A stretch of DNA of 63,720 nucleotides, counting the filler, from Rozella allomycis CSF55 (Eukaryota): NCBI GenBank assembly GCA_000442015.1. It is 9 parts of 9 records of this genome, joined end to end, with 100 filler letters (N's around TTAATTAATTAA, not from the genome) between each part and the next. Parts side by side here need not be neighbours in the genome. Positions count along the whole stretch, not along the records: positions 1 to 22,912 come from KE560951.1; 8 more parts are not named here. The stretch is one strand, 5' to 3'. The notes below the pieces were generated by a model. It was not told where the DNA came from and made no database searches. It saw only the letters and a program-made list of their open reading frames with translations. The translations under genes were made by a program, and so were the position numbers. Shown one piece after another: positions 4,173 through 47,756 of the stretch. Every line of letters begins with the position of its first letter. The stretch's first letter is position 1.

Positions 4173-5714
4173 GTGCTAAATTGGTCGAATTTTCCTAAAA
4201 TTGTTATGAAGGACATGTTAATTAGGAACCTGAAGAAGGGACTATGGGCGTCCATTTTTATAGCATTTGTCACTTTTGCTATATCTTATGCCAGTTTGAA
4301 ATACAGAGGAACTCATAAACTGGATCGTACATTTCAGTCACTTGTAAACGTTACTGACAAGCAAAAGTACTTTGAAAGAGAATGCCTTAAGCTTCCTAAA
4401 TTGCAGTACAGTGAAGACGATAAAAGAATACCATCATGTCCATTTATCTCGGGTGATACGTATAGATCATTCTGCCATCACGTTTTTGATGACTCTACGC
4501 CTCCTTCAGTTTACTATTACAAAGCGGGTCGAATTAAGAAGAATGAATTAGTGTTTGTTGCTACACATATCTTGGATAAAGTCTCACCTGCTCTTCTTCA
4601 AAATGCCAAAGAACCATATATTTTAATCACATCTAACAGTGACGATTCCGCGCCAAATAATTTTCAAGACTTACTCAAATCTGAAAAGTTAATTGCTTGG
4701 TTTCCTCAAAATGCTGATATGATTCATGAAAAAGTTTATCCCATTCCAATTGGTTTGGCTAATTACATGTGAGATCACGGAAACTTTCATTTAATTAATG
4801 AGTTGTCGGCAAAAATAAAAAGATTTGCTGATAGGAAAACGCTTTTGTGCATAAACTTTGGGTATAGTGAGTCATCAAGAAAAAATATTGAATCAAAGTT
4901 TCGTGGAATGAAAAATGTAAAGTTTTTACAAAGTAGAGTGGATTTCAAAGANAACTTACTCAAATCTGAAAATTTAATTGCTTGGTTTCCTCAAAATGCT
5001 GATATGGTTCATGAAAAAGTTTATCCGCTTCCTATTGGATTGGCCAATTACATGTGGGATCACGGAAACTTTCATTTGATTAATGAGTTGTCAGCAAAAA
5101 GAAAAAGATTTGCTGATAGGAAAACGCTGCTCTATATAAACTTTGGGTATAGTGAATCATCAAGAAAAAATATTGAAGCAAAGTTCCGTGGAATGAAAAA
5201 TGTAAAGTTTTTACAAAGTAGAGTGGATTTCAAAGAATATTTGGAGCATATGATGGATTCAAAGTTTGTTTTAAGCCCTAGAGGTCATGGGATTGATTGC
5301 CACCGAAGCTGGGAGTCAATGATCATGGGTGCCGTTCCTATAGTTTTATCTACGGCGATAGACGAGGCATTTAGAAATACTAAAAGGGCAATAATCTTAG
5401 ATTCATGGGATGAGTTGAGTGTAGAATTATTGGAGTCGTATGATCCAGGTGAAGATATTATTCCNCAACGCTAGAGGTCATGAGATTGATTGCCACCGAA
5501 TCTGGGAGTCATTGATCATGGGTGCCGTTCCTATAGTTTATCTACGGCGATAGATGAGGCATTTAGAAATACTAAAAGGACAATAATTTTAGATTCATGG
5601 GATGAATTGAGTGTAGAATTATTGGAGTCGTATGATCCAGGTGAAGATATTATTCCTGACGTTCTCTACGCGAAATTCTGGTATGACGAAATTAATTCAA
5701 AAAGAATTCCTTAG
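4173..5714 (+). CDS. Exostosin-like (GT47) glycosyltransferase, type II membrane, intronless; assembled as overlapping variant fragments
   Basis: N-terminal TM helix (LWASIFIAFVTFAISY); LITSNSDDSAP, WFPQN, PIPIGLAN, FVLSPRGHGIDCHRSWESMIMGAVPIV. Segments repeat across Ns at 4952 and 5465; one copy has TGA for TGG at 4770 and another has frameshifts. Confidence 0.7.
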
Positions 5715-5776
5715 AATGTGAATAAAACCTATTCTTCTTGATTGTCATTTAATTTAAGTAATTTATTTGATTTAAG

Positions 5777-8233
5777 TTATGATTTAATTACTGTCACGCA
5801 ATCTGTAAGCATACCCGTAAACACTTCAAAGAGCTTGGTCGAGGAAAATTGCGAATTGCTTATTTTGACATACTTGATGCCAACTTTAAGTATCGCTGCC
5901 ACAATAATCTCAACTTTTTCAACGCAGTCAATCTCAACAGTGAAGGAAATGTCAATGTGCTCTATTGGAGATCCTCTCAATGAATTAATCAGCTCGTGTA
6001 ACTGATCTGAAGACATTTCGTTTCTCGATATATTCAAGTACTTTATTCTTTTTAATCTTAATCCTAATGTCTTCCAAATTCCAATATCTGGAGTCCGAAA
6101 TGCATTTACTAGCGTAAGCCTTTCAAGTTTGGAATCTTCTAACCCAGAAATAAAGGAAAAAGATGCTTTGGAATTCATATTCATTCCAGTTAGACTGAAT
6201 TCTTCAAGATTGCTAATTATTTTTCCCAACATTTCTGCATGGTCTGGATCTAATCTATTCAAACGATCAATAAAAATTTGGCCAAAGTCAAGTTTTTTAA
6301 TATTTGGGGCGATTTGTTGAAGTAAATGAAGGAGTCCCATTTTTGTTGTTGCCATTAAATGAAGATAAAGTTCTTCAATCTGATTATCGCCAAGATTAAT
6401 CAAATGTTTTTGAGCAACAACTCTTTCAAGACTCAACTTTTTGATTTTGGAATTTGATATTTCAGATATTATGCTTCCAACAAGCTCTGGATCAGACATG
6501 CCCACAATGAAAAGATGTTCTAAATTTTTGAAAGAACCAGAGAAGAATGTCTTATAATATTCAGAAGAATTATCAACGCAGTCAAAAAACATTTCATGAT
6601 GACAAGAGCATTCACAATTGCATGCCTCATTATGTACATCTTTGCAAACACAGCTACTATCATTTTTGTTGTCTATTTGTCCAGAAAGATGAAGTTGGGA
6701 AATGTCCAAAGATGTTATTTTCGTACTTGACAAGTGAGACCCCAGTATTCTTAATTGATCCAGCGCCATTTTAGCATTCCTTAAATTCAATATCTTGATA
6801 TTCCTAAAACTTTTAAAAAGATTATTCATTTTATAAAGTGACACTTTCTCAAAATTACTGCCAAACAAATCAAGAGAATTTATAGCATCAAATTTCAGCA
6901 AGGAATCAGCCAACAAACTGGCTCCAATGTCATCAAATCGAATATGGTGAAGGATAAGATTTTCAATTTTGTCAAGCTCGCTTAAATTTCTAATAATGGA
7001 AAATTCACTTCTATACACATCAGCGTCGATATTGAAAATGAACCTGCTGGTGCTGAAGAATGGCTGAAAATATTTCAAGGTATCAAAATACAGATCAATA
7101 GAAGAGAACACAACATCAATCTTGATATTCTCCCAAAATTCCTTTTCCCAATTGGCTCTTATGTAAAATTCCTCCAAATTTCCAATGTGGGCGTATACGC
7201 GAAAGTGATAGTCAATTGAATCATGCGTCATCTCTAAAGCTTGGAAAAGCGATAGCACAGAGCATAAATAAGCAAAGTGCTCTTTGTAAATAGGATTCTC
7301 TTCTAAATACCTATAGACTTGTTGGCCGGTAAAATTTTCAAAATTTACATTTTTCATTTTCATTAGTTTGAATGGATTAGGATAATTGTCTAAATTTGAG
7401 GCAGGTGTTTTAAAAGCTAAAACCTTATCTGGCAAAACAAACGTGTCATCGTTAGCGATAGGCCTCATATCACGAGCTGGAGAGGCAGAAGTTTGGGAAT
7501 CAACCCTATGGGTGACAGCCACAGACTTTGCTCGAGTTCCAGAGCTTGATTTTGTCTGCTCTGGCCTTGAAAGAGCTACAGATGTAATTTTGGTCTGCGT
7601 CGACTTTGAAATCGTTTCCGGTTTCTGTGCAGGTCTTTTAGGGACTAATCTTACATTGGTCTGCGTATATTTGGAATGAGTTTGAGGTTTAACATTTGTC
7701 TGTGCAGGATTTTGATTTTCAGAATTGACATTTGTATGCACAGGTTTTAAAACGCCAGATGTAAATATGGTCTGCGTAGACCTTGAAAGTTTTTGAGTTG
7801 TCTGCGTAGACTTTGAAAATGTTACATATCTGACATTGGTCGGTGCATGTACTACAGATCTAACTATGGTCTGCGTAGACATTGAAAGAGATTTAGGTTT
7901 AGCATTCGTCTGCGTAGGTCTTGAAGTTGTTTCATGAGTCGCACTGGGCTGGCCGATTGTTTCTGTCTCAGCGTTGGCATTAGACGTCCCGCCATTCTTT
8001 TCTTGACCTATTTCTATTTCCTTGCTCTTTAGAGTCCCGTTCTCTTTTTCTTTTTCTTTTATAGCCTCGTCCTCTTCTTTACTTCCATCCTCGATGTAAC
8101 ACCACTTTCCATCATTATACACCTTGGCAGGGTAACTTCCATCATTTACTTCCCTCAAACCAATAAAACGTTTGTGAATACCAGTGTAAGATATGATTTT
8201 GAAAAGACACAACAATAGAATTAGAATATTCAT
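5777..8233 (-). CDS. Putative secreted LRR (RNI-like) protein with an S/T-rich TQT-repeat region
   Basis: Intronless ~818-aa ORF; hydrophobic N-terminus MNILILLLCLFKIISYT; six xxTQT motifs; C-terminal LRR-like repeats (IENLILHH, INSLDLFG, IKILNLRN, ITSLDISQ, IKKLSLER, IKYLNISRN, IEHIDISF). Confidence 0.75.
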   Translation of the reverse strand: MNILILLLCLFKIISYTGIHKRFIGLREVNDGSYPAKVYNDGKWCYIEDGSKEEDEAIKEKEKENGTLKSKEIEIGQEKNGGTSNANAETETIGQPSATHETTSRPTQTNAKPKSLSMSTQTIVRSVVHAPTNVRYVTFSKSTQTTQKLSRSTQTIFTSGVLKPVHTNVNSENQNPAQTNVKPQTHSKYTQTNVRLVPKRPAQKPETISKSTQTKITSVALSRPEQTKSSSGTRAKSVAVTHRVDSQTSASPARDMRPIANDDTFVLPDKVLAFKTPASNLDNYPNPFKLMKMKNVNFENFTGQQVYRYLEENPIYKEHFAYLCSVLSLFQALEMTHDSIDYHFRVYAHIGNLEEFYIRANWEKEFWENIKIDVVFSSIDLYFDTLKYFQPFFSTSRFIFNIDADVYRSEFSIIRNLSELDKIENLILHHIRFDDIGASLLADSLLKFDAINSLDLFGSNFEKVSLYKMNNLFKSFRNIKILNLRNAKMALDQLRILGSHLSSTKITSLDISQLHLSGQIDNKNDSSCVCKDVHNEACNCECSCHHEMFFDCVDNSSEYYKTFFSGSFKNLEHLFIVGMSDPELVGSIISEISNSKIKKLSLERVVAQKHLINLGDNQIEELYLHLMATTKMGLLHLLQQIAPNIKKLDFGQIFIDRLNRLDPDHAEMLGKIISNLEEFSLTGMNMNSKASFSFISGLEDSKLERLTLVNAFRTPDIGIWKTLGLRLKRIKYLNISRNEMSSDQLHELINSLRGSPIEHIDISFTVEIDCVEKVEIIVAAILKVGIKYVKISNSQFSSTKLFEVFTGMLTDCVTVIKS

Positions 8234-8299
8234 CTGTGGCTTTTCTAATTTTTTCAATCAGAAAAGCCACCGAAGGATCTGCCTTAAAGTTCAAATTTA

Positions 8300-10462
8300 T
8301 TAAACTGGAAATAATGACTGCCTGCGTTCCTTTTCATGTTTCGCTTGAACCTGTTTGAAGTACGAGATTAAATCTAGAAATTCCTTTGTGGTTTTAGTTT
8401 TCTTTTCAACTGGACTAGAGAGTGTTGGCCTGAACTTAGCGTCTTATTAGATTTTTACTTTGATAAAAGAGATACTGATTGTACACTGTTCAACCTATTT
8501 CTCAATGTCGCAAACGCGCTACTCTGCGGCAGCAACATTAAGAGACCGTAGAGGGATTTATACAAGAAAAAATACTTATCAGGCTCGAGCAATTGGAGTC
8601 TTAAAAATGAGAATATTGGAGATTCAATTAGTTGCACCAATTTGTCAACTTGCACCAAGAAATTAACTGTGATTTCATATTCGGAAAATGTCATGATCAA
8701 GTAGTAAGCATGCTCATACATTTGAGCTAAAAAGCAAAGGGCCAATGTCGAAACTGGGTTATGGACCCATGATTTATACAAAGCATGGAATAGAGAAATA
8801 TTATCCTTCAAATCCATAAATTTCAATTTCCGCCTTAAATCAACAAGTTCCGTTGCAGTCAAAAGTATTATTGTCAAATGCTGAACAATAAAACTAGCAA
8901 ATTCTAAATCCTTATCTATATTTAACGTAGATCATTACATTTTCAATTTCTAAAAATTCAGAAAACGAACAAAACACTTTTTCTGGTTGCAATGAAATGC
9001 AGAGTTGTCGAATAATTAAAGACCCCTTTGTTTCCAAAAGTTTTCTGTCGGATTTAAATAGTTCTAATAGTTGAATTATGAAATTGTTAAATGATTCCCC
9101 AGAAAACGACGATGAAATTTGTGAAAGTAGGTGAAGCGTCTTTTTAATTGCCTCCTCAGAACAGTCAGACAATGACTTTAATAGCGACATAAATAATTTA
9201 TCATCCTCACAAAATACCTTTCCAAAAACCTTAAAGAGCCTTACTTTTTGTGGACACTTCAAGTGAATCATCAAAAGCCAATCCAGAGATGCAAGTCTGG
9301 CAGATTCATTATCTTGAGTAGCAAATTGGACTAACGTTCGAGTCAAAGCGTCATATCCTATATCCTCATTCGAGCTTTGAATGATTTGAAAAAGTTTGCT
9401 GTTGAGCGAAGTCCCAATTTCTCTTATGGCAAGTGATGAACAAGACATGGAACGTACTATCGCGAATAATGCTTTGTCTGAAAGGAAAACAATCGACGTC
9501 GAATCTATTTTGATGACTGTCTCAAGCCACTGTAAAGCTATTTCCCGGGGTAGATCATCTAATTTATAGAAATGGAAAAGCAAACCTTCCATAGTGGCAA
9601 AATCCAAAAGAATTACGGAGACCCTCCGCATGTCTAAATCCGTTTTTTCTCTCATGGAAATCGCAGATAAAAATGCGTCGAGACATGACCTTGTCATGGT
9701 TCTTATATCTTGAGATTCATCAGACAGGTAGCGAAATAAACCATCAAGAAATTCTGGAAGAAATACAATGAAATTTAATTCTGGAAGAGAATGAAGAAGA
9801 CAAACCCACGAAACTAAAAATTGACGGGCATTTTTCATTTGAACAAATATCCTCTCCTTTATTAAAGGAATAAATCTTTTTCTTTAAAAAATTCATATTA
9901 CTTTTCAACATTGAATATAGGCTTTTCATTTACAATATCCCGTAACAGTCGATCCAAAAGTTCGGCCCCATTTCGAACAGATAATTCGACGTCTGTACAC
10001 AACTGTATTCAATATGAATATTATATTTACTTTACATAGGCAGTCAAAAATTTCATTGAAATAGATTAGAATGTTATGTCTCGTTGTTTTTGCAATATTA
10101 TACATCGCTTCGCACGCATAGTATCGTACTCGGCTATCTTGATCTGAAAAACAAGCTAGTATGGGTGGACATATATCTTTCAATATTTGATCCGCATCCA
10201 TTAACACGCATAATTAAGATATTACTTCTCCCATTGCAATAGCGACCGCTGCAAGACCAATTAGGCCTCCATTTCTAGAATTAGGGAAGACTGAAAATGC
10301 AAATTCTTGAGACAAGTATTCAATTGTCTGCTTAATTTTTGCAATATCCCTATTTTGCCACATATCTTTAACACTTCTCTCAACTTCAATTGCAGCAATT
10401 TTTCGTTTTTCATATAGTTTGTCACTCAAATTCTTAAATAATACTTGCTGCTCACTTGCCAT
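8300..10462 (-). CDS. VAC14: Vacuole morphology protein VAC14 (PIKfyve/Fab1 complex scaffold), multi-exon
   Basis: LSDKLYEKRKIAAIEVE, RNGGLIGLAAVAIA, FSDQDSRVRYYACEAMYNIAK, VDKLVQLIESPIFSFLRLQLLEP, LYGLLMLLPQSSAFATLRNRL. Confidence 0.96.
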
Positions 10463-10705
10463 TGAGTCAACAATTTAACCTGAAGGAAAAATCACAAATG
10501 TTCCAATTTTTGACTATATCATTTCTCTTAATTATAATGCCTTGAAGAGACATCTCAGAGACTCAGACATGAATATTCTTAATCCCTTATTAGATAGTTG
10601 GTCATGCAATTGCAACAACTCACCAGTGAAAGATTTGAAGTCACAAGTTTCGACCAAAGCATTTGGTTAAATACAATAAAGGCAAATAAAAAATATATTT
10701 ATTAA

Positions 10706-22912: not shown

Positions 22913-23012
22913 NNNNNNNNNNNNNNNNNNNNNNNNNNNNNNNNNNNNNNNNNNNNTTAATTAATTAANNNNNNNNNNNNNNNNNNNNNNNNNNNNNNNN
23001 NNNNNNNNNNNN
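22913..23012. other. Artificial contig linker (N-TTAATTAATTAA-N); also at 26512-26611, 31950-32049, 33596-33695, 46986-47085, 58854-58953, 61161-61260, 62386-62486
   Basis: Identical all-frame stop cassette inside ~100-nt N runs. Confidence 0.98.
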
Positions 23013-28094: not shown

Positions 28095-31000
28095 TTATTT
28101 TTTTGAGTTTTGAACAAGAGTTTCGTTTACTTTTTGCAACATGACTATCAATTGTGATTGATATTCTAGCAGATTTTCATTGTTTGCATTTTCCAACTGT
28201 TTTTCTAGCAGTACTTTCCAGTCATTGTCCTTGGAGGAACAATCCATCTCTACGTCTTGTTGCGCATCATCGACAGTTTCAATCTTCTCACTTCTTTGGG
28301 TTATTTGTACTGCATTATTTTCATTTTTACTTTCATTTTGATTTAATTTACTTTCATCTTGAATCTTTTCTTCAATTCTATCTGGAATAGAATCAATTTC
28401 CAACACATCATCTTCGTTATCACTTTCCACATGCAACTGTTTAATCCCAAAGCATTTCTTTCCTAGAGGAGAGTTTGGAAACGCTGGAATGTCAAACTGA
28501 ACGCGTTTCGCTGTCGGTGTATCCAATGTTGACAATGGGGCGTATGCTTTCTTCTTAAGAATTCCACCAGGCGACGCGAAATTTGGAGAAGCAAAAGTTG
28601 GGTTATTTGCTAAACGTTTTGTTGTTGGACTGTTCTGAACACTTGAACTAGATTTAGGGCTATTTTGAACTGAATTGGAAGTTGAATCTATTTTGATGTT
28701 TTTTAATTTTGAAGTTTTCTCGCTTCTTTTTCTTTTTCTTTGAACGATTTCTAATTGAGAAAATTGAGATGAGGTTTCTGATTTGTTTTCCAAAATTTCA
28801 GAAATCCAAAATTGTTTTTCATTGTTGAGGAATTGAATTAATTTTGGAAGATTTTTGGACAAAAGATCACCTTGATCTTTTAATTTTTTAAATATTTCTT
28901 TAATTAAAGTAAACTAGATGTCAATTGATGTATAAGTTTACGTTTTTGGATTGAATTAGAAAATCTGAAATTTCGACAATGAAAAGTAGTAATGCTTTAT
29001 CATTAAGAGAATCAATGAAGACTGGAAGATTATTTACAAATGAAGTATTTTTGTGTAATAAAATGGAAACAAATTTGAAAAGATGTTTTAAATGAGAAGT
29101 AATGGGATCAAATGTAGAAGTTTTTGACGATTTCTCTTTTAATGTAACAGGAGCGTGAATTTTGAGATTTTTCATTAAAAATAGAACAATTCTAGACCAA
29201 ATCTCTATAGATTGACTAGATAAAGGAAAGAGAAGAAAAGTACTATTTTTCAATTATGGAAGGATCGTTAAAGAGGAAATCCAACCAGGAAAGGTAATCT
29301 TTCTTTTGATTTCTAACAACATTGTAAAAAGTAAGAAAAAGTTGTTCCCATCCATTTAAATGTTCATCAGTTAACAAAGTAGATTGATTGAAAGGGAGTG
29401 AAAGAACTTTTAAAATGGATGAATGACATTCCCCTTCATTTACTAATAAATCTTCACAGACCATTCTTGTTTCTTCAATGTACAATCTCAATTCAAATGC
29501 TAAAATTAAACTCTCTAAAAATAATTACCCAATTTTAGCCACAATTCTATTTTTAGTTTTTCATTTCTTATTAAAGAATTTTCATCAAATAAATCACTTG
29601 ATTCCATTAGAGTTAAAAGAGAATTTAAACATTCCAGCTTTATGAAATAAGAAAGAATTAATTTACCATTTCACTTCCATATTTCATTGTGTTTATTAAT
29701 AATTGAAAAGTATCAATTAAATCAAATTCCCAATCTTTGTTCAAATTGTTTGCATTAGTTTTCAGCAAGCCACAAATTAAGAAATCTAAAAATAGAATTG
29801 TAAATTTCAGAATTACTTAGAGGTGTGATTTTCATTCCAAGAAATTTTTCAGATTTAATAGAAAATGTATTTTTGCCAAATGCTAAGAGGGTTGGTTCTA
29901 ATAAATGACAAAATAAATAGAATTTGTATTCTTCTTGACATTTCCAGCCATTTGGAATTTCAACATTAACAGTTACGTAAATTTCATAAAGAAAATTTAC
30001 AACTTTTGAAAACATTTTGTGATATTCAGGAATTGATCCAAATCCTTCTCTTGTTAATTTTTGAATACTTTTCAAAATCAAAGTCCACGATGAATTTAAA
30101 TTTGAAGGAATTATTTTGTTTCCAGAACTTTCCCATTCAATTATTTCATTCTTCATTAAATCTTTATTCTTTAATTCTTTTTTTATTAATTCGCAAACGC
30201 CGCCAATTATTGAATTCAAAAATTTAATGTCAACAACAACATTTAAATCCTCATTTGTTATTTCTCTCATTAAAAGATTTTTGGTGCTTGAAGCTGCATA
30301 ATTCTTTTCTGTCACAATCATCGCCAAGGTCTCAATTATTCTTCCAGCCTCGCCAATATCCAACACAGGCGTCAACCAACTGTCCACTGTCGATTTAACG
30401 TTATTCTGTAAACTGAAAATTATGCTTCTCCAAAGTCTAAACGCCATTTCTCTCAATTTTAAATTTGTATCATTTTTCATTGAATCTATTACAGGGGCCA
30501 TAATCATGTCAATCTTTTTGTTGAAAATTTCACTTTCTGAGAAATAATATATAAATGGTCTCCTTTGGATTAAATTTAAATTATTACATCCATGCATTCA
30601 TCGCTGCATATCTCGCATTAACATTTCTTGTATTGAATCCCTTTTCTACAATCTTCATCGCATCTCCCAACGTTGCATGATTAATCAATCTATTCCCTTT
30701 TATTCTAAATTCAATTTTCTTACCTATAAACCCAACAGATACACCCAAAGATCCAATCACACTCTCCTCTTTTCCTTCAATCTTTATTAATCCCTTCAGT
30801 TCATTCATTGTCTTTTCAACAAAAAATTTAAATAATATCTTTATTTCATTTCGTCTGTCTTTTTTACTTTATTTAATTCATTCCTTTTCTCTGCTTTTAC
30901 CTCCAACCACAACTGCATTCCTTTTGTCAACACACCTTGACCTGCTTCTCTCAGTCTACTCCTCCATTAATTACATTCATACTTTGGTATCGAACTTGAC

Positions 31001-31604
31001 AAAAATTTAAATGCATTTAATATCCATTTATCCATCATCTTTTTCATTTGTCCTGGGTACATCTCAATCCATCTTTGATACGCCTACAACATCACAATCA
31101 TATACTTACCAACAATCCCTCCAACTGTATCGAAGACGACTCAAACTTTGAATGAATTGCCTTATCAATCCCTTCCAACAGCCTCCCAACAAACGGCCCC
31201 ACATATCCTCCTCCAATCCTCTGCACCGAACAACACCACACAGCATAATTAGCCATCAACTACAACACACCAACACCAAAACCTCACCTTGCTCTCACTC
31301 TGCTCCATCTTCTCACACAAAAACTCACACACTCTTTTCACCCTCTCCTTTGCTTGCTTCTCATCGCCTTTCCTTTTCCATATTATTTCTTACTAAAAAA
31401 TTGAAATAAATTCGTATGGTGCAAAAGGGAACCAAGACATTTGAACCCACTGTCAATGTTCTGGCTTTTCTGGATGTCACTTTCAACAGATTCATAAACG
31501 CACCAGTAGTCGCTTATCTTGGGACTGTTGAATATTTCGGGGTGCAATTTTAAATATGTCGTGACGAAACGCGTGCCTGCATTTTCTGATGCTTCAACGA
31601 CCAT
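28095..31604 (-). CDS. RIF1: Rap1-interacting factor 1 (Rif1) homolog, multi-exon
   Basis: HEAT-like N-terminal exons (MANYAVWCCSVQ, FESSSIQLEGL, NARYAAMNAW, LREMAFRLW) resembling Rif1_N; SPGGILKK and KRVQF PP1-docking motifs; short C-terminal helical domain; start approximate. Confidence 0.75.
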
Positions 31605-31764
31605 CAATGATCAATGAATGCAAGGGTGGATTTTCAGTATTGCAAAGAATATGAAGATTTGAAATGTTTTGCTTTTAATTCGAAATAAAAGATACTCTTA
31701 TTAACTTTTCCTACCTGAAATCAAAGTCTAAGTAAATCTACAGTTCTGCCTATGGGATGTTTGC

Positions 31765-31926
31765 TATCGGGCGGGGTACGACTCCAGACACCATTATTGA
31801 AGATCGTGTTAACACCATTTTCACTTCGATTACACACTCACTTTAAGGGTCAAGGGATTTATAAATGTTTTGGGTAGCAGTAAAAATTATAAAGTCTCAC
31901 AGTGCTCGTTAAATCGGACGGGGAGT
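31765..31926. mobile_element. Degenerate 5' end and internal segment of the HINE-like family, abutting an oppositely oriented 3' end
   Basis: TATCGGGCGGGG.TACGAC resembles the 47841/48481 ends; CCATTTTCACTTCGA.TACACACTCAC matches 48543-48569; 37-bp terminus at 31892-31926. Confidence 0.5.
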
Positions 31927-32049
31927 TAATAATTAATCAGGGATTAGCANNNNNNNNNNNNNNNNNNNNNNNNNNNNNNNNNNNNNNNNNNNNTTAATTA
32001 ATTAANNNNNNNNNNNNNNNNNNNNNNNNNNNNNNNNNNNNNNNNNNNN

Positions 32050-47327: not shown

Positions 47328-47756
47328 CGAAAATTTCCGAAAATCGAAAATCTCCGAAAGAAGATTGAGCGACAATAAACTATCACAAACTGTTGAATTC
47401 AATAAAGATATTCTTTGTTTAACCCCCTCAACCCTAACCCTTTACCCTAACCCTCCCTAACCCTTCCTGACCCCTACCCTAACACCCCCAAATCAACCCT
47501 AACCCTACCCTAACACTCCCNATTTAACCTCCTCAACCCTAACCCTTTACCCTAACCCTCCCAACCCTAACCCTTCCTGACCCCCTACCCTAACACCCCC
47601 AAATCAACCCTAACCCTACCCTAACACTCCCTAACAACCCTAAAAACTCCCTAGCAACCCTAACACTCCCCAAAAATCAACATTTCGATAAACTGTACTT
47701 TACGGGAATCCACAGAGGAATATTTTTCGGAGATTTTCGGTTTTCGAAAATTTTCG
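47328..47756. repeat. Degenerate (CCCTAA)n telomere-like tract (47420-47672) flanked by 32-bp inverted repeats
   Basis: Many CCCTAA units; arms 47328-47359 and 47725-47756 match at 30/32 as reverse complements; tract partly duplicated across N 47521. Confidence 0.8.

Follow-up and report, generated by a model that had tools for sequence, protein, structure and literature searches.

A 63.7-kb window of the genome of Rozella allomycis CSF55 (the whole stretch of DNA analyzed here) was found to contain, at positions 5777..8233 of the minus strand, an open reading frame (ORF) of 818 amino acids (aa) whose predicted product combines a hydrophobic N-terminus, a basic disordered tract with six TQT motifs of the type bound by LC8 (DYNLL), and a solenoid of leucine-rich repeats (LRRs). 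Rozella is the cultured representative of the Cryptomycota, the nearest relatives of the Microsporidia, and R. allomycis lives as an unwalled, obligate intracellular endoparasite of Allomyces. On the strength of its LC8-type array, the protein is put forward as a candidate host-LC8-grabbing parasite protein.

The ORF is read without introns from the first ATG, at 8233, to a stop codon at 5777–5779. This ATG lies 8 codons past the upstream in-frame stop, and the stop-to-stop span of 826 codons (5777..8257) exceeds every other open frame of the window, the runner-up being 552 codons. Because the chance of 826 open codons at the base composition of the window (stop probability of 0.069 per codon) is about 3 × 10−26, the ORF is regarded as coding and not as noise. 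Along the protein, the hydrophobic N-terminus MNILILLLCLFKIISYTGI (aa 1–19, 8177..8233) is followed by an acidic Lys/Glu-rich linker (aa 23–94, 7952..8167; 17 D+E vs. 10 K+R, mean hydropathy of 0.37), which was modeled by AlphaFold2 (AF2) mostly as low-confidence coil, by the basic disordered repeat tract (aa 95–262, 7448..7951), by a partly helical region of uncertain fold (aa 263–394, 7052..7447), and by the LRR solenoid of the ribonuclease inhibitor-like (RNI-like) type (aa 395–818, 5780..7051), all on the minus strand. The region of aa 263–394 was poorly modeled by AF2 (predicted helices with a predicted local distance difference test score, pLDDT, of 33–52) and had no Pfam or PDB sequence match.

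The six TQT motifs, namely, SRPTQT, SMSTQT, SKSTQT, SRSTQT, SKYTQT, and SKSTQT, have their glutamine residues at aa 108, 121, 144, 154, 191, and 213 (TQT codons at 7915–7907, 7876–7868, 7807–7799, 7777–7769, 7666–7658, and 7600–7592 of the minus strand, respectively). The six anchors thus fall within 106 residues (7592..7915), with Q-to-Q spacings of 13, 23, 10, 37, and 22 residues, and variant anchors were found at aa 177 (AQT), 225 (EQT), and 246 (SQT). The tract contains 24 K+R vs. 7 D+E residues (net charge of +17), no cysteine, 52 S+T (31%) and 13 P (8%) among its 168 residues (S+T+P of 39%), and has a mean scaled hydropathy of 0.40. In the AF2 model of aa 1–317, residues 69 to 292 form a featureless coil with a pLDDT of 31–39, which, coming from a single sequence and at low confidence, is weak evidence alone. 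A preliminary description of this DNA had listed a hydrophobic N-terminus followed by a charged linker and a disordered tract, the six TQT motifs in these contexts together with the AQT, EQT, and SQT variants, and a DNA word repeated in the tract. The motifs and variants matched that list exactly, the linker proved to be charged in the acidic sense, the tract was of low hydropathy, basic, and predicted to be coil, and six of the seven copies of the word GTCTGCGT in the window were located in the tract.

When the 168-aa tract or the entire protein was shuffled 20,000 times, no shuffle reached six TQT motifs (shuffled means of 0.38 and 0.12, respectively). The motifs are not independent of one another, so that this statistic overstates the surprise. 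The codon of Thr(−1) is ACG in six of six motifs and that of the glutamine is CAG in six of six, vs. 7/41 and 7/23 elsewhere in the ORF, and the tract contains degenerate direct repeats of 36–61 nt with 61–77% identity. To judge from the identical codons and the direct repeats, the six motifs are diverged copies of one ancestral unit that was amplified and then diverged. No tandem array was found in 7400–8000 at a score of at least 30 using Tandem Repeats Finder (TRF). When the units were aligned on their glutamine, nucleotide identity was 0.82 at positions −4..+1 but fell to 0.50 and 0.43 in the ten codons that flank this core on each side; the in-phase background was 0.30. In the protein columns, Ser(−4) was present in all six units, position −3 was K/R in five and Met in one, Ser(−2) was present in four, and the other flanking columns agreed in at most four of six. 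Judged by these values, change has been slower in the repeat core S-[K/R/M]-x-T-Q-T than in the remainder of the unit. The stretch kept in this way, S(−4), K/R/M(−3), x, T, Q, T, falls on the recognition window of LC8 as outlined in the accessible text of PMC6607443.

According to the same text, the LC8 motif consists of eight residues with the TQT anchor at −1..+1; a polar-contact residue is favored at −4 and a large residue, often Lys/Arg, at −3, a bulky aromatic residue at −2 and a proline before the anchor are disfavored, and at +2 P/D/E are favored and hydrophobic residues are poorly accommodated (PMC6607443). The accessible part of PMC3078936 gives the motif as [D/S]−4 K−3 X−2 [T/V/I]−1 Q0 [T/V]1 [D/E]2. 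Five qualitative rules coded from the available description in PMC6607443 were applied to the six 8-mers. All six carry the TQT anchor, Ser(−4), and a large residue at −3, and two of them, FSKSTQTT and ISKSTQTK, comply with all five rules. In the accessible literature on rabies virus P, Bim, and DYNLL1, the pentapeptide KSTQT of these two motifs also occurs. Five of the six motifs match [^P].[KR].TQT, the expression of the Eukaryotic Linear Motif (ELM) resource. LC8 binds disordered regions only, as stated in the accessible part of PMC12057147, and weak LC8 sites can bind via bivalency (PMC6607443, accessible text). Since the LC8 groove is described there as strictly conserved among 58 eukaryotes (PMC6607443), either host or parasite LC8 could be the partner.

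The C-terminal part of the protein was modeled by AF2 over aa 270–818 from a four-row alignment (mean pLDDT of 63, predicted template modeling score, pTM, of 0.63). The model contains 14 beta–alpha units (14 strands) from aa 398 to 792, spaced 22–33 aa, the loop insertion excepted, with a pLDDT of 70–91 over most of them. A Foldseek comparison with PDB yielded 241 chains at E ≤ 0.001. The LRR domains of NLRP proteins, ribonuclease inhibitor, CARMIL, and FBXL/TIR1-type proteins ranked highest; these leading matches had E-values of 3 × 10−8 to 1 × 10−5, a probability of 1.00, a TM-score (query) of 0.38–0.52, and an identity of 10–17%. The Rozella domain shares with ribonuclease inhibitor, NLRP, CARMIL, and FBXL a beta–alpha solenoid with a period of about 27–28 residues and differs from this set in a unique 43-residue Cys/His-rich loop and in having no Pfam LRR match at E ≤ 1. 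The Pfam search of the 818-aa protein returned no family at all at this threshold, hence no LRR profile and no F-box, and that of a Rozella paralog, P0004 (described below), returned none at E ≤ 0.01; the PDB sequence search of the 818-aa protein gave two chance matches to acyl-carrier proteins only (E = 0.3). Neither an F-box ahead of the LRRs (by eye) nor a NACHT domain was detected.

The Cys/His cluster CVCKDVHNEACNCECSCHH (aa 528–546, 6596..6652, minus strand) consists of four CxC pairs and HH and is metallothionein-like. It is situated in a loop of 43 residues (aa 519–561, pLDDT below 50) between LRR units 5 and 6, and this loop is missing in P0004, in which a 34-column gap is found at this place. 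The loop looks like a metal-binding insertion and may form a metal site or a disulfide knot. Here, too, the preliminary description held up for the most part: it had called the LRRs RNI-like, and AF2 and Foldseek agree on the fold, whereas its estimate of ten repeats fell short of the 14 or so units of the model; the Cys/His cluster does interrupt the LRRs, as it had stated; and the paralog search that it had proposed did retrieve Rozella paralogs of the LRR part (P0004 and P0005).

In a HMMER search of 1.84 billion cluster representatives, two matches were obtained at E ≤ 0.001, namely, P0003, which represents the same gene and is a fragment named 'RNI-like protein' in UniRef, and P0004, a partial Rozella paralog of 349 aa (29% identity, E = 3 × 10−8). 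A profile search added P0005 (150 aa). All three records come from R. allomycis CSF55, and their alignment is confined to the LRR part. No ortholog of the 818-aa protein outside R. allomycis was found among the 1.84 billion representatives, including those of other flagellated fungi, and the TQT tract had no detectable relative in the databases searched. In JGI (Joint Genome Institute) metagenome contigs, 286 stretches matched the patterns and none was confirmed by tblastn; a search of shorter proteins with aa 1–300 gave no matches, a search of the ESM Atlas with aa 90–265 gave no usable match, and tblastn of the 818-aa protein revealed no paralog elsewhere in the window. As far as these searches reach, the gene is a member of a small Rozella-restricted LRR family with about three detectable members.

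In the mechanism proposed here, the repeat array would form a multivalent LC8-binding ladder: every S-[K/R]-x-T-Q-T unit would occupy one groove of an LC8 dimer as an added beta-strand, and up to six such dimers would zip two chains in parallel. The array would thereby dimerize and stiffen the protein, so that a rigid pair of LRR horseshoes would face the target. That LC8 binding, of host or self, is the real function of the array is estimated as slightly short of an even chance. The host-directed version, in which a putative effector would use the LC8 of Allomyces, is doubtful, and the full scenario, in which the protein would be exported to the Allomyces cytoplasm, up to six host LC8 dimers would zip two copies, and the LRRs would serve as a bivalent clamp or as a dynein-linked tether, is more doubtful again. 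What the analysis shows is the motifs, the preferred conservation of their core, a disorder-like composition, the LRR fold, and a family confined to Rozella; LC8 binding itself and the choice of LC8 we infer, and delivery to the host cytosol we only infer. The effector interpretation offered by the preliminary description is thereby supported in part.

The segment MNILILLLCLFKIISYTGIHKRF contains the one strongly hydrophobic stretch of the protein: its Kyte–Doolittle mean of 2.01 is the highest of any 19-mer, the next being 1.61, and the AF2 single-sequence model of aa 1–317 places a helix over residues 2–17. By eye, an h-region ILILLLCLF of nine residues is followed by K12 and then by a polar stretch with S15, T17, and G18, with possible cleavage after S15 or T17. 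This uninterrupted core, followed by a lysine and polar residues, resembles a short signal peptide. A basic n-region is missing, a lysine stands within the hydrophobic stretch, and H20-K21-R22 come directly after it; the absence of the n-region and the HKR that follows leave room for an uncleaved N-out/C-in anchor. The N-terminus is put forward as a candidate signal peptide, which is its most likely role; a membrane anchor at this end is less likely. By eye, no convincing PEXEL or RxLR-type export motif was seen past the N-terminus, nor a crinkler-like LxLFLAK. With a cleaved signal peptide, the sole LC8 within reach would be that of the host, Allomyces, and passage across the host-derived membrane would be needed. 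The parasite–host interface is said to have been described as multi-membrane by Powell et al. in 2017. In the accessible part of PMC6317583, the Rozella protoplast is placed in a compartment made of pushed-in host plasma membrane, so that secretion alone does not bring the protein to the host cytosol.

Several points weigh against an LC8-binding effector, both in the motifs and in the topology. Four of the six motifs break one of the coded rules each, namely, TSRPTQTN with Pro(−2), HSKYTQTN with Tyr(−2), and LSMSTQTI and LSRSTQTI with Ile(+2), and the favored P/D/E at +2 is found in none of the six. In the accessible data of PMC6607443, 29 of 72 tested peptides bound LC8 and 32 anchor-bearing non-binders were recorded; therefore, a TQT anchor alone is no proof, and sequence alone does not settle binding. 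Given the common descent of the six motifs, the array may be a by-product of repeat expansion, and filtering LC8 sites by conservation, as recommended in the accessible part of PMC12057147, would need orthologs, of which none were found. Topology is the weak link of the effector reading: a signal peptide routes the tract to the lumen of the endoplasmic reticulum (ER), away from LC8, and on this route the threonines that need burial in the LC8 groove would possibly be O-glycosylated. The host-membrane compartment, as it appears in the accessible part of PMC6317583, demands an extra, so far hypothetical translocation step. The N-terminus itself, with its lack of a positive n-region and its internal lysine, adds to these points.

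The explanation that competes best with LC8 binding is that the LRR protein is secreted or displayed at the surface and that its tract is no more than a flexible, basic spacer, rich in Ser/Thr, possibly O-glycosylated, and produced by repeat expansion. The TQT motifs would then have arisen by accident in the unit that was amplified, and LC8 would never be met; this is a possibility to be taken seriously, at clearly less than an even chance. The hydrophobic N-terminus suits ER entry, and host membrane surrounds the parasite (PMC6317583, accessible part). The composition of the tract (31% S+T, 8% P) and its degenerate repeats fit a spacer as well, the codon identity speaks for one motif amplified and not for six origins, and the AQT, EQT, and SQT copies indicate that the anchor is not always kept. 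However, the part of the repeat that is kept best matches the LC8 window precisely, positions −4 and −3 included, and a spacer would have no reason to conserve it. Moreover, an S+T+P content of 39% is modest for a mucin-like domain, and RNI-type LRRs and CxC/His clusters, which are typical of the reducing cytosol, would be unusual outside it.

A cytosolic location is provided for by another reading, which is counted within that of LC8 binding and is in itself quite unlikely: the N-terminus would be an uncleaved N-out/C-in anchor or would go unused, the tract and the LRRs would face the Rozella cytosol, and Rozella LC8 would dimerize this endogenous client, for example, on an organelle or a flagellar structure. 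The absence of positive charge before the hydrophobic stretch and the presence of H20-K21-R22 after it favor, by the positive-inside rule, a cytosolic C-terminal side; AF2 draws a single helix over residues 2–17, RNI-like LRRs are usually cytosolic, and all the motif evidence for LC8 applies equally. On the other hand, only nine uninterrupted hydrophobic residues precede K12, and a stretch of 17 residues with a charge inside is less like a membrane span, for which it is short, than like the h-region of a signal peptide. A gene this lineage-specific, with no ortholog in other flagellated fungi among the 1.84 billion representatives, also points to host interaction more than to core cell functions.

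The public annotation implies a different origin of the ORF. In a word-indexed search, the sole match to the C-terminal 549 residues was P0002, the NCBI model 'Vacuolar protein 14-like protein [Rozella allomycis CSF55]' of 1035 aa, parts of which are 100% identical to the ORF: residues 588–1028 of P0002 are identical to ORF aa 1–458, minus 17 residues (aa 296–312) taken out as an in-frame intron of 51 nt (7348–7298). If this annotation were correct, the ORF would be a C-terminal extension of VAC14, joined to it via a 66-nt intron, and the hydrophobic stretch would be internal, which is very unlikely. What can be said for it is that P0002 links both parts, that the 66-nt intron (8240..8305, minus strand) has GT..AG ends and brings the ORF in frame once spliced, and that the gap between the VAC14 stop and the ATG is merely 66 nt. 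However, the last exon of the upstream VAC14 (8297..8443, minus strand, by mapping of P0002) ends in ...KHEKERRQSLFPV and then in TAA (8302–8300) and TAA (8299–8297), 50 residues past a complete Fig4-binding domain, and the proposed intron skips both stop codons. Human VAC14 presumably also ends shortly past the equivalent ...VQ.KH... motif. The Pfam domains Vac14_Fab1_bd (aa 3–79 of P0002) and Vac14_Fig4_bd (aa 354–536, profile positions 1–179 of 179) are both located upstream of the TAA-TAA, and no VAC14 domain was found in the ORF at 5777–8233 (no Pfam family at E ≤ 1); a PDB sequence search of P0002 gave no matches.

The 66-nt junction is also the longest intron on the VAC14 side of P0002 and exceeds all five introns inside VAC14 (16–42 nt). 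By mapping, the latter are located at 8911–8926 (16 nt), 8429–8457 (29 nt), 9176–9217 (42 nt), 9875–9900 (26 nt), and 10003–10030 (28 nt); for splicing, 16 nt is probably too little, and this intron may hide a frameshift error in an assembly with many single Ns. Downstream of the junction, P0002 is unreliable: its final intron deletes SNFEKVSLYKMNNLFKS, including the NLFKSF block conserved in the paralog P0004, and the model ends after six out-of-frame codons, whereas the ORF and the predicted LRR fold run on for 360 aa. The model of the single-cell assembly, P0003 (217 aa, 99% identical), starts at M579 instead and spans aa 579–818, and it drops 23 residues (a 69-nt in-frame stretch) that form a regular, confidently modeled LRR helix. 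Because the VAC14 stop codons are skipped, the VAC14 domains are complete upstream, and the model is faulty downstream, the fused model is probably wrong, and P0002 (8240–10474 and 5777–8233, minus strand) most likely a chimera that combines VAC14 with aa 1–458 from an LRR gene unrelated to it. No contig of X1, the one RNA run labeled as this species, aligned with 5600–10500. The stretch 8240..8305 is more likely an intergenic spacer than an intron, and the ORF is most likely a stand-alone intronless gene 66 nt downstream of VAC14. Its likeness to VAC14 consists only in adjacency and one public gene model, whereas it differs in having no VAC14 domain and in its site after the double stop codon of VAC14 itself. 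Both P0002 and P0003 merit re-annotation. The correction of the chimeric VAC14/LRR model holds independently of function, and the error would mislead orthology and domain-architecture studies.

It is extremely unlikely that the tract is an SQ/TQ cluster domain serving as a substrate region of ATM/ATR-type kinases, although S/T-Q dipeptides number 8 in aa 107–247 vs. 2 in the other 650 residues and the LC8 motifs of ASCIZ lie within its SQ/TQ cluster, since S/T-Q alone would suffice there and leave the invariant T(+1), S(−4), and K/R(−3) unexplained, and since these kinases are nuclear, whereas the N-terminus of the protein is of a secretory type.

Just downstream of the ORF, an exostosin/GT47-like gene was identified at 4206–5714 of the plus strand (PF03016, E = 5 × 10−8, 33.0 bits vs. 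a cutoff of 33.4). It contains two-copy tandem duplications at 4669–5237 (285 nt × 2, 92%) and 5278–5656 (192 nt × 2, 95%), as well as single Ns; these duplications look like an assembly artefact or a collapsed haplotype. The window contains 746 N in total, with many isolated single Ns and two 44-N blocks at 22913–22956 and 22969–23012, which indicates a modest consensus quality of the assembly and affects every argument built on reading frames. At 47418–47670, CCCTAA-type units mixed with CCCTAACAC make up a degenerate, interstitial, telomere-like array (periods of 20–111), and GC skew is strongly negative (−0.33) in the 2-kb bin 30001–32000.

Multivalent TQT arrays are a known design of LC8 clients, for example, in Drosophila ASCIZ, for which the accessible literature gives seven motifs. 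Similar to ASCIZ/ATMIN, Nup159, CIZ1, and KANK1, the Rozella protein has several TQT-anchored 8-residue motifs along a disordered segment beside a folded domain, and its Q-to-Q spacing of 10–37 residues is in the style of the variable linkers of ASCIZ, as far as these are described in that literature. Unlike it, these proteins are endogenous nuclear or cytosolic ones with no secretory N-terminus, and they have no homology to the Rozella protein, in which four of the six motifs carry one disfavored residue and which is a putative LC8 client. None of the four is known to have an LRR domain. Rabies virus P and other viral proteins, as well as cellular Bim, have the KSTQT core found in two of the six Rozella motifs, and here, too, a pathogen would exploit a motif of a host hub; however, the viral (K/R)xTQT proteins are made in the host cytosol and, to our knowledge, have a single motif each, whereas the Rozella protein has six and would need export across membranes.

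A second comparison is offered by the Microsporidia, the intracellular parasites that form the sister lineage. According to the accessible part of Reinke et al. 2017 (PMC5423893), signal peptides and clade-specific families are overrepresented among the microsporidian proteins found by experiment to be host-exposed, and in several species LRR families have expanded among the proteins predicted to be so. The Rozella protein resembles these families in its signal-type N-terminus, lineage restriction, LRRs, and lack of a function recognizable by Pfam. The Rozella family differs from them in that no similar microsporidian protein was found among the 1.84 billion representatives and in having about three members vs. 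ten or more; an LC8 motif is not reported for the microsporidian families in the accessible part of PMC5423893. Pathogen (K/R)xTQT proteins, multivalent cellular LC8 clients, and LRR families among predicted host-exposed proteins of Microsporidia are already known, whereas no eukaryotic parasite protein that unites an LC8 array with LRRs was met in the literature searched. This literature contained no report of a secreted effector with LC8 TQT motifs, and no Rozella effector study was found among the titles examined, the original Rozella genome paper, whose supplements might list the gene, being outside the search. The accessible parts of the literature on Rozella, leucine-rich repeats, and the secretome do not cover this gene, and LRRs, secretion, and signal peptides are not mentioned in the Paramicrosporidium genome paper (PMC5701793).

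LC8 hijacking is documented for viruses. If the array does bind LC8, a eukaryotic parasite would have evolved, via repeat expansion, the multivalent design of ASCIZ or Nup159, and peptides together with recombinant LC8 would provide a simple biochemical entry to a host–parasite system without genetics. If, in addition, the protein is exported and zipped by LC8, it would represent the first case of multivalent LC8 hijacking by an effector from a eukaryotic parasite and would give a first molecular handle on host manipulation by Rozella.

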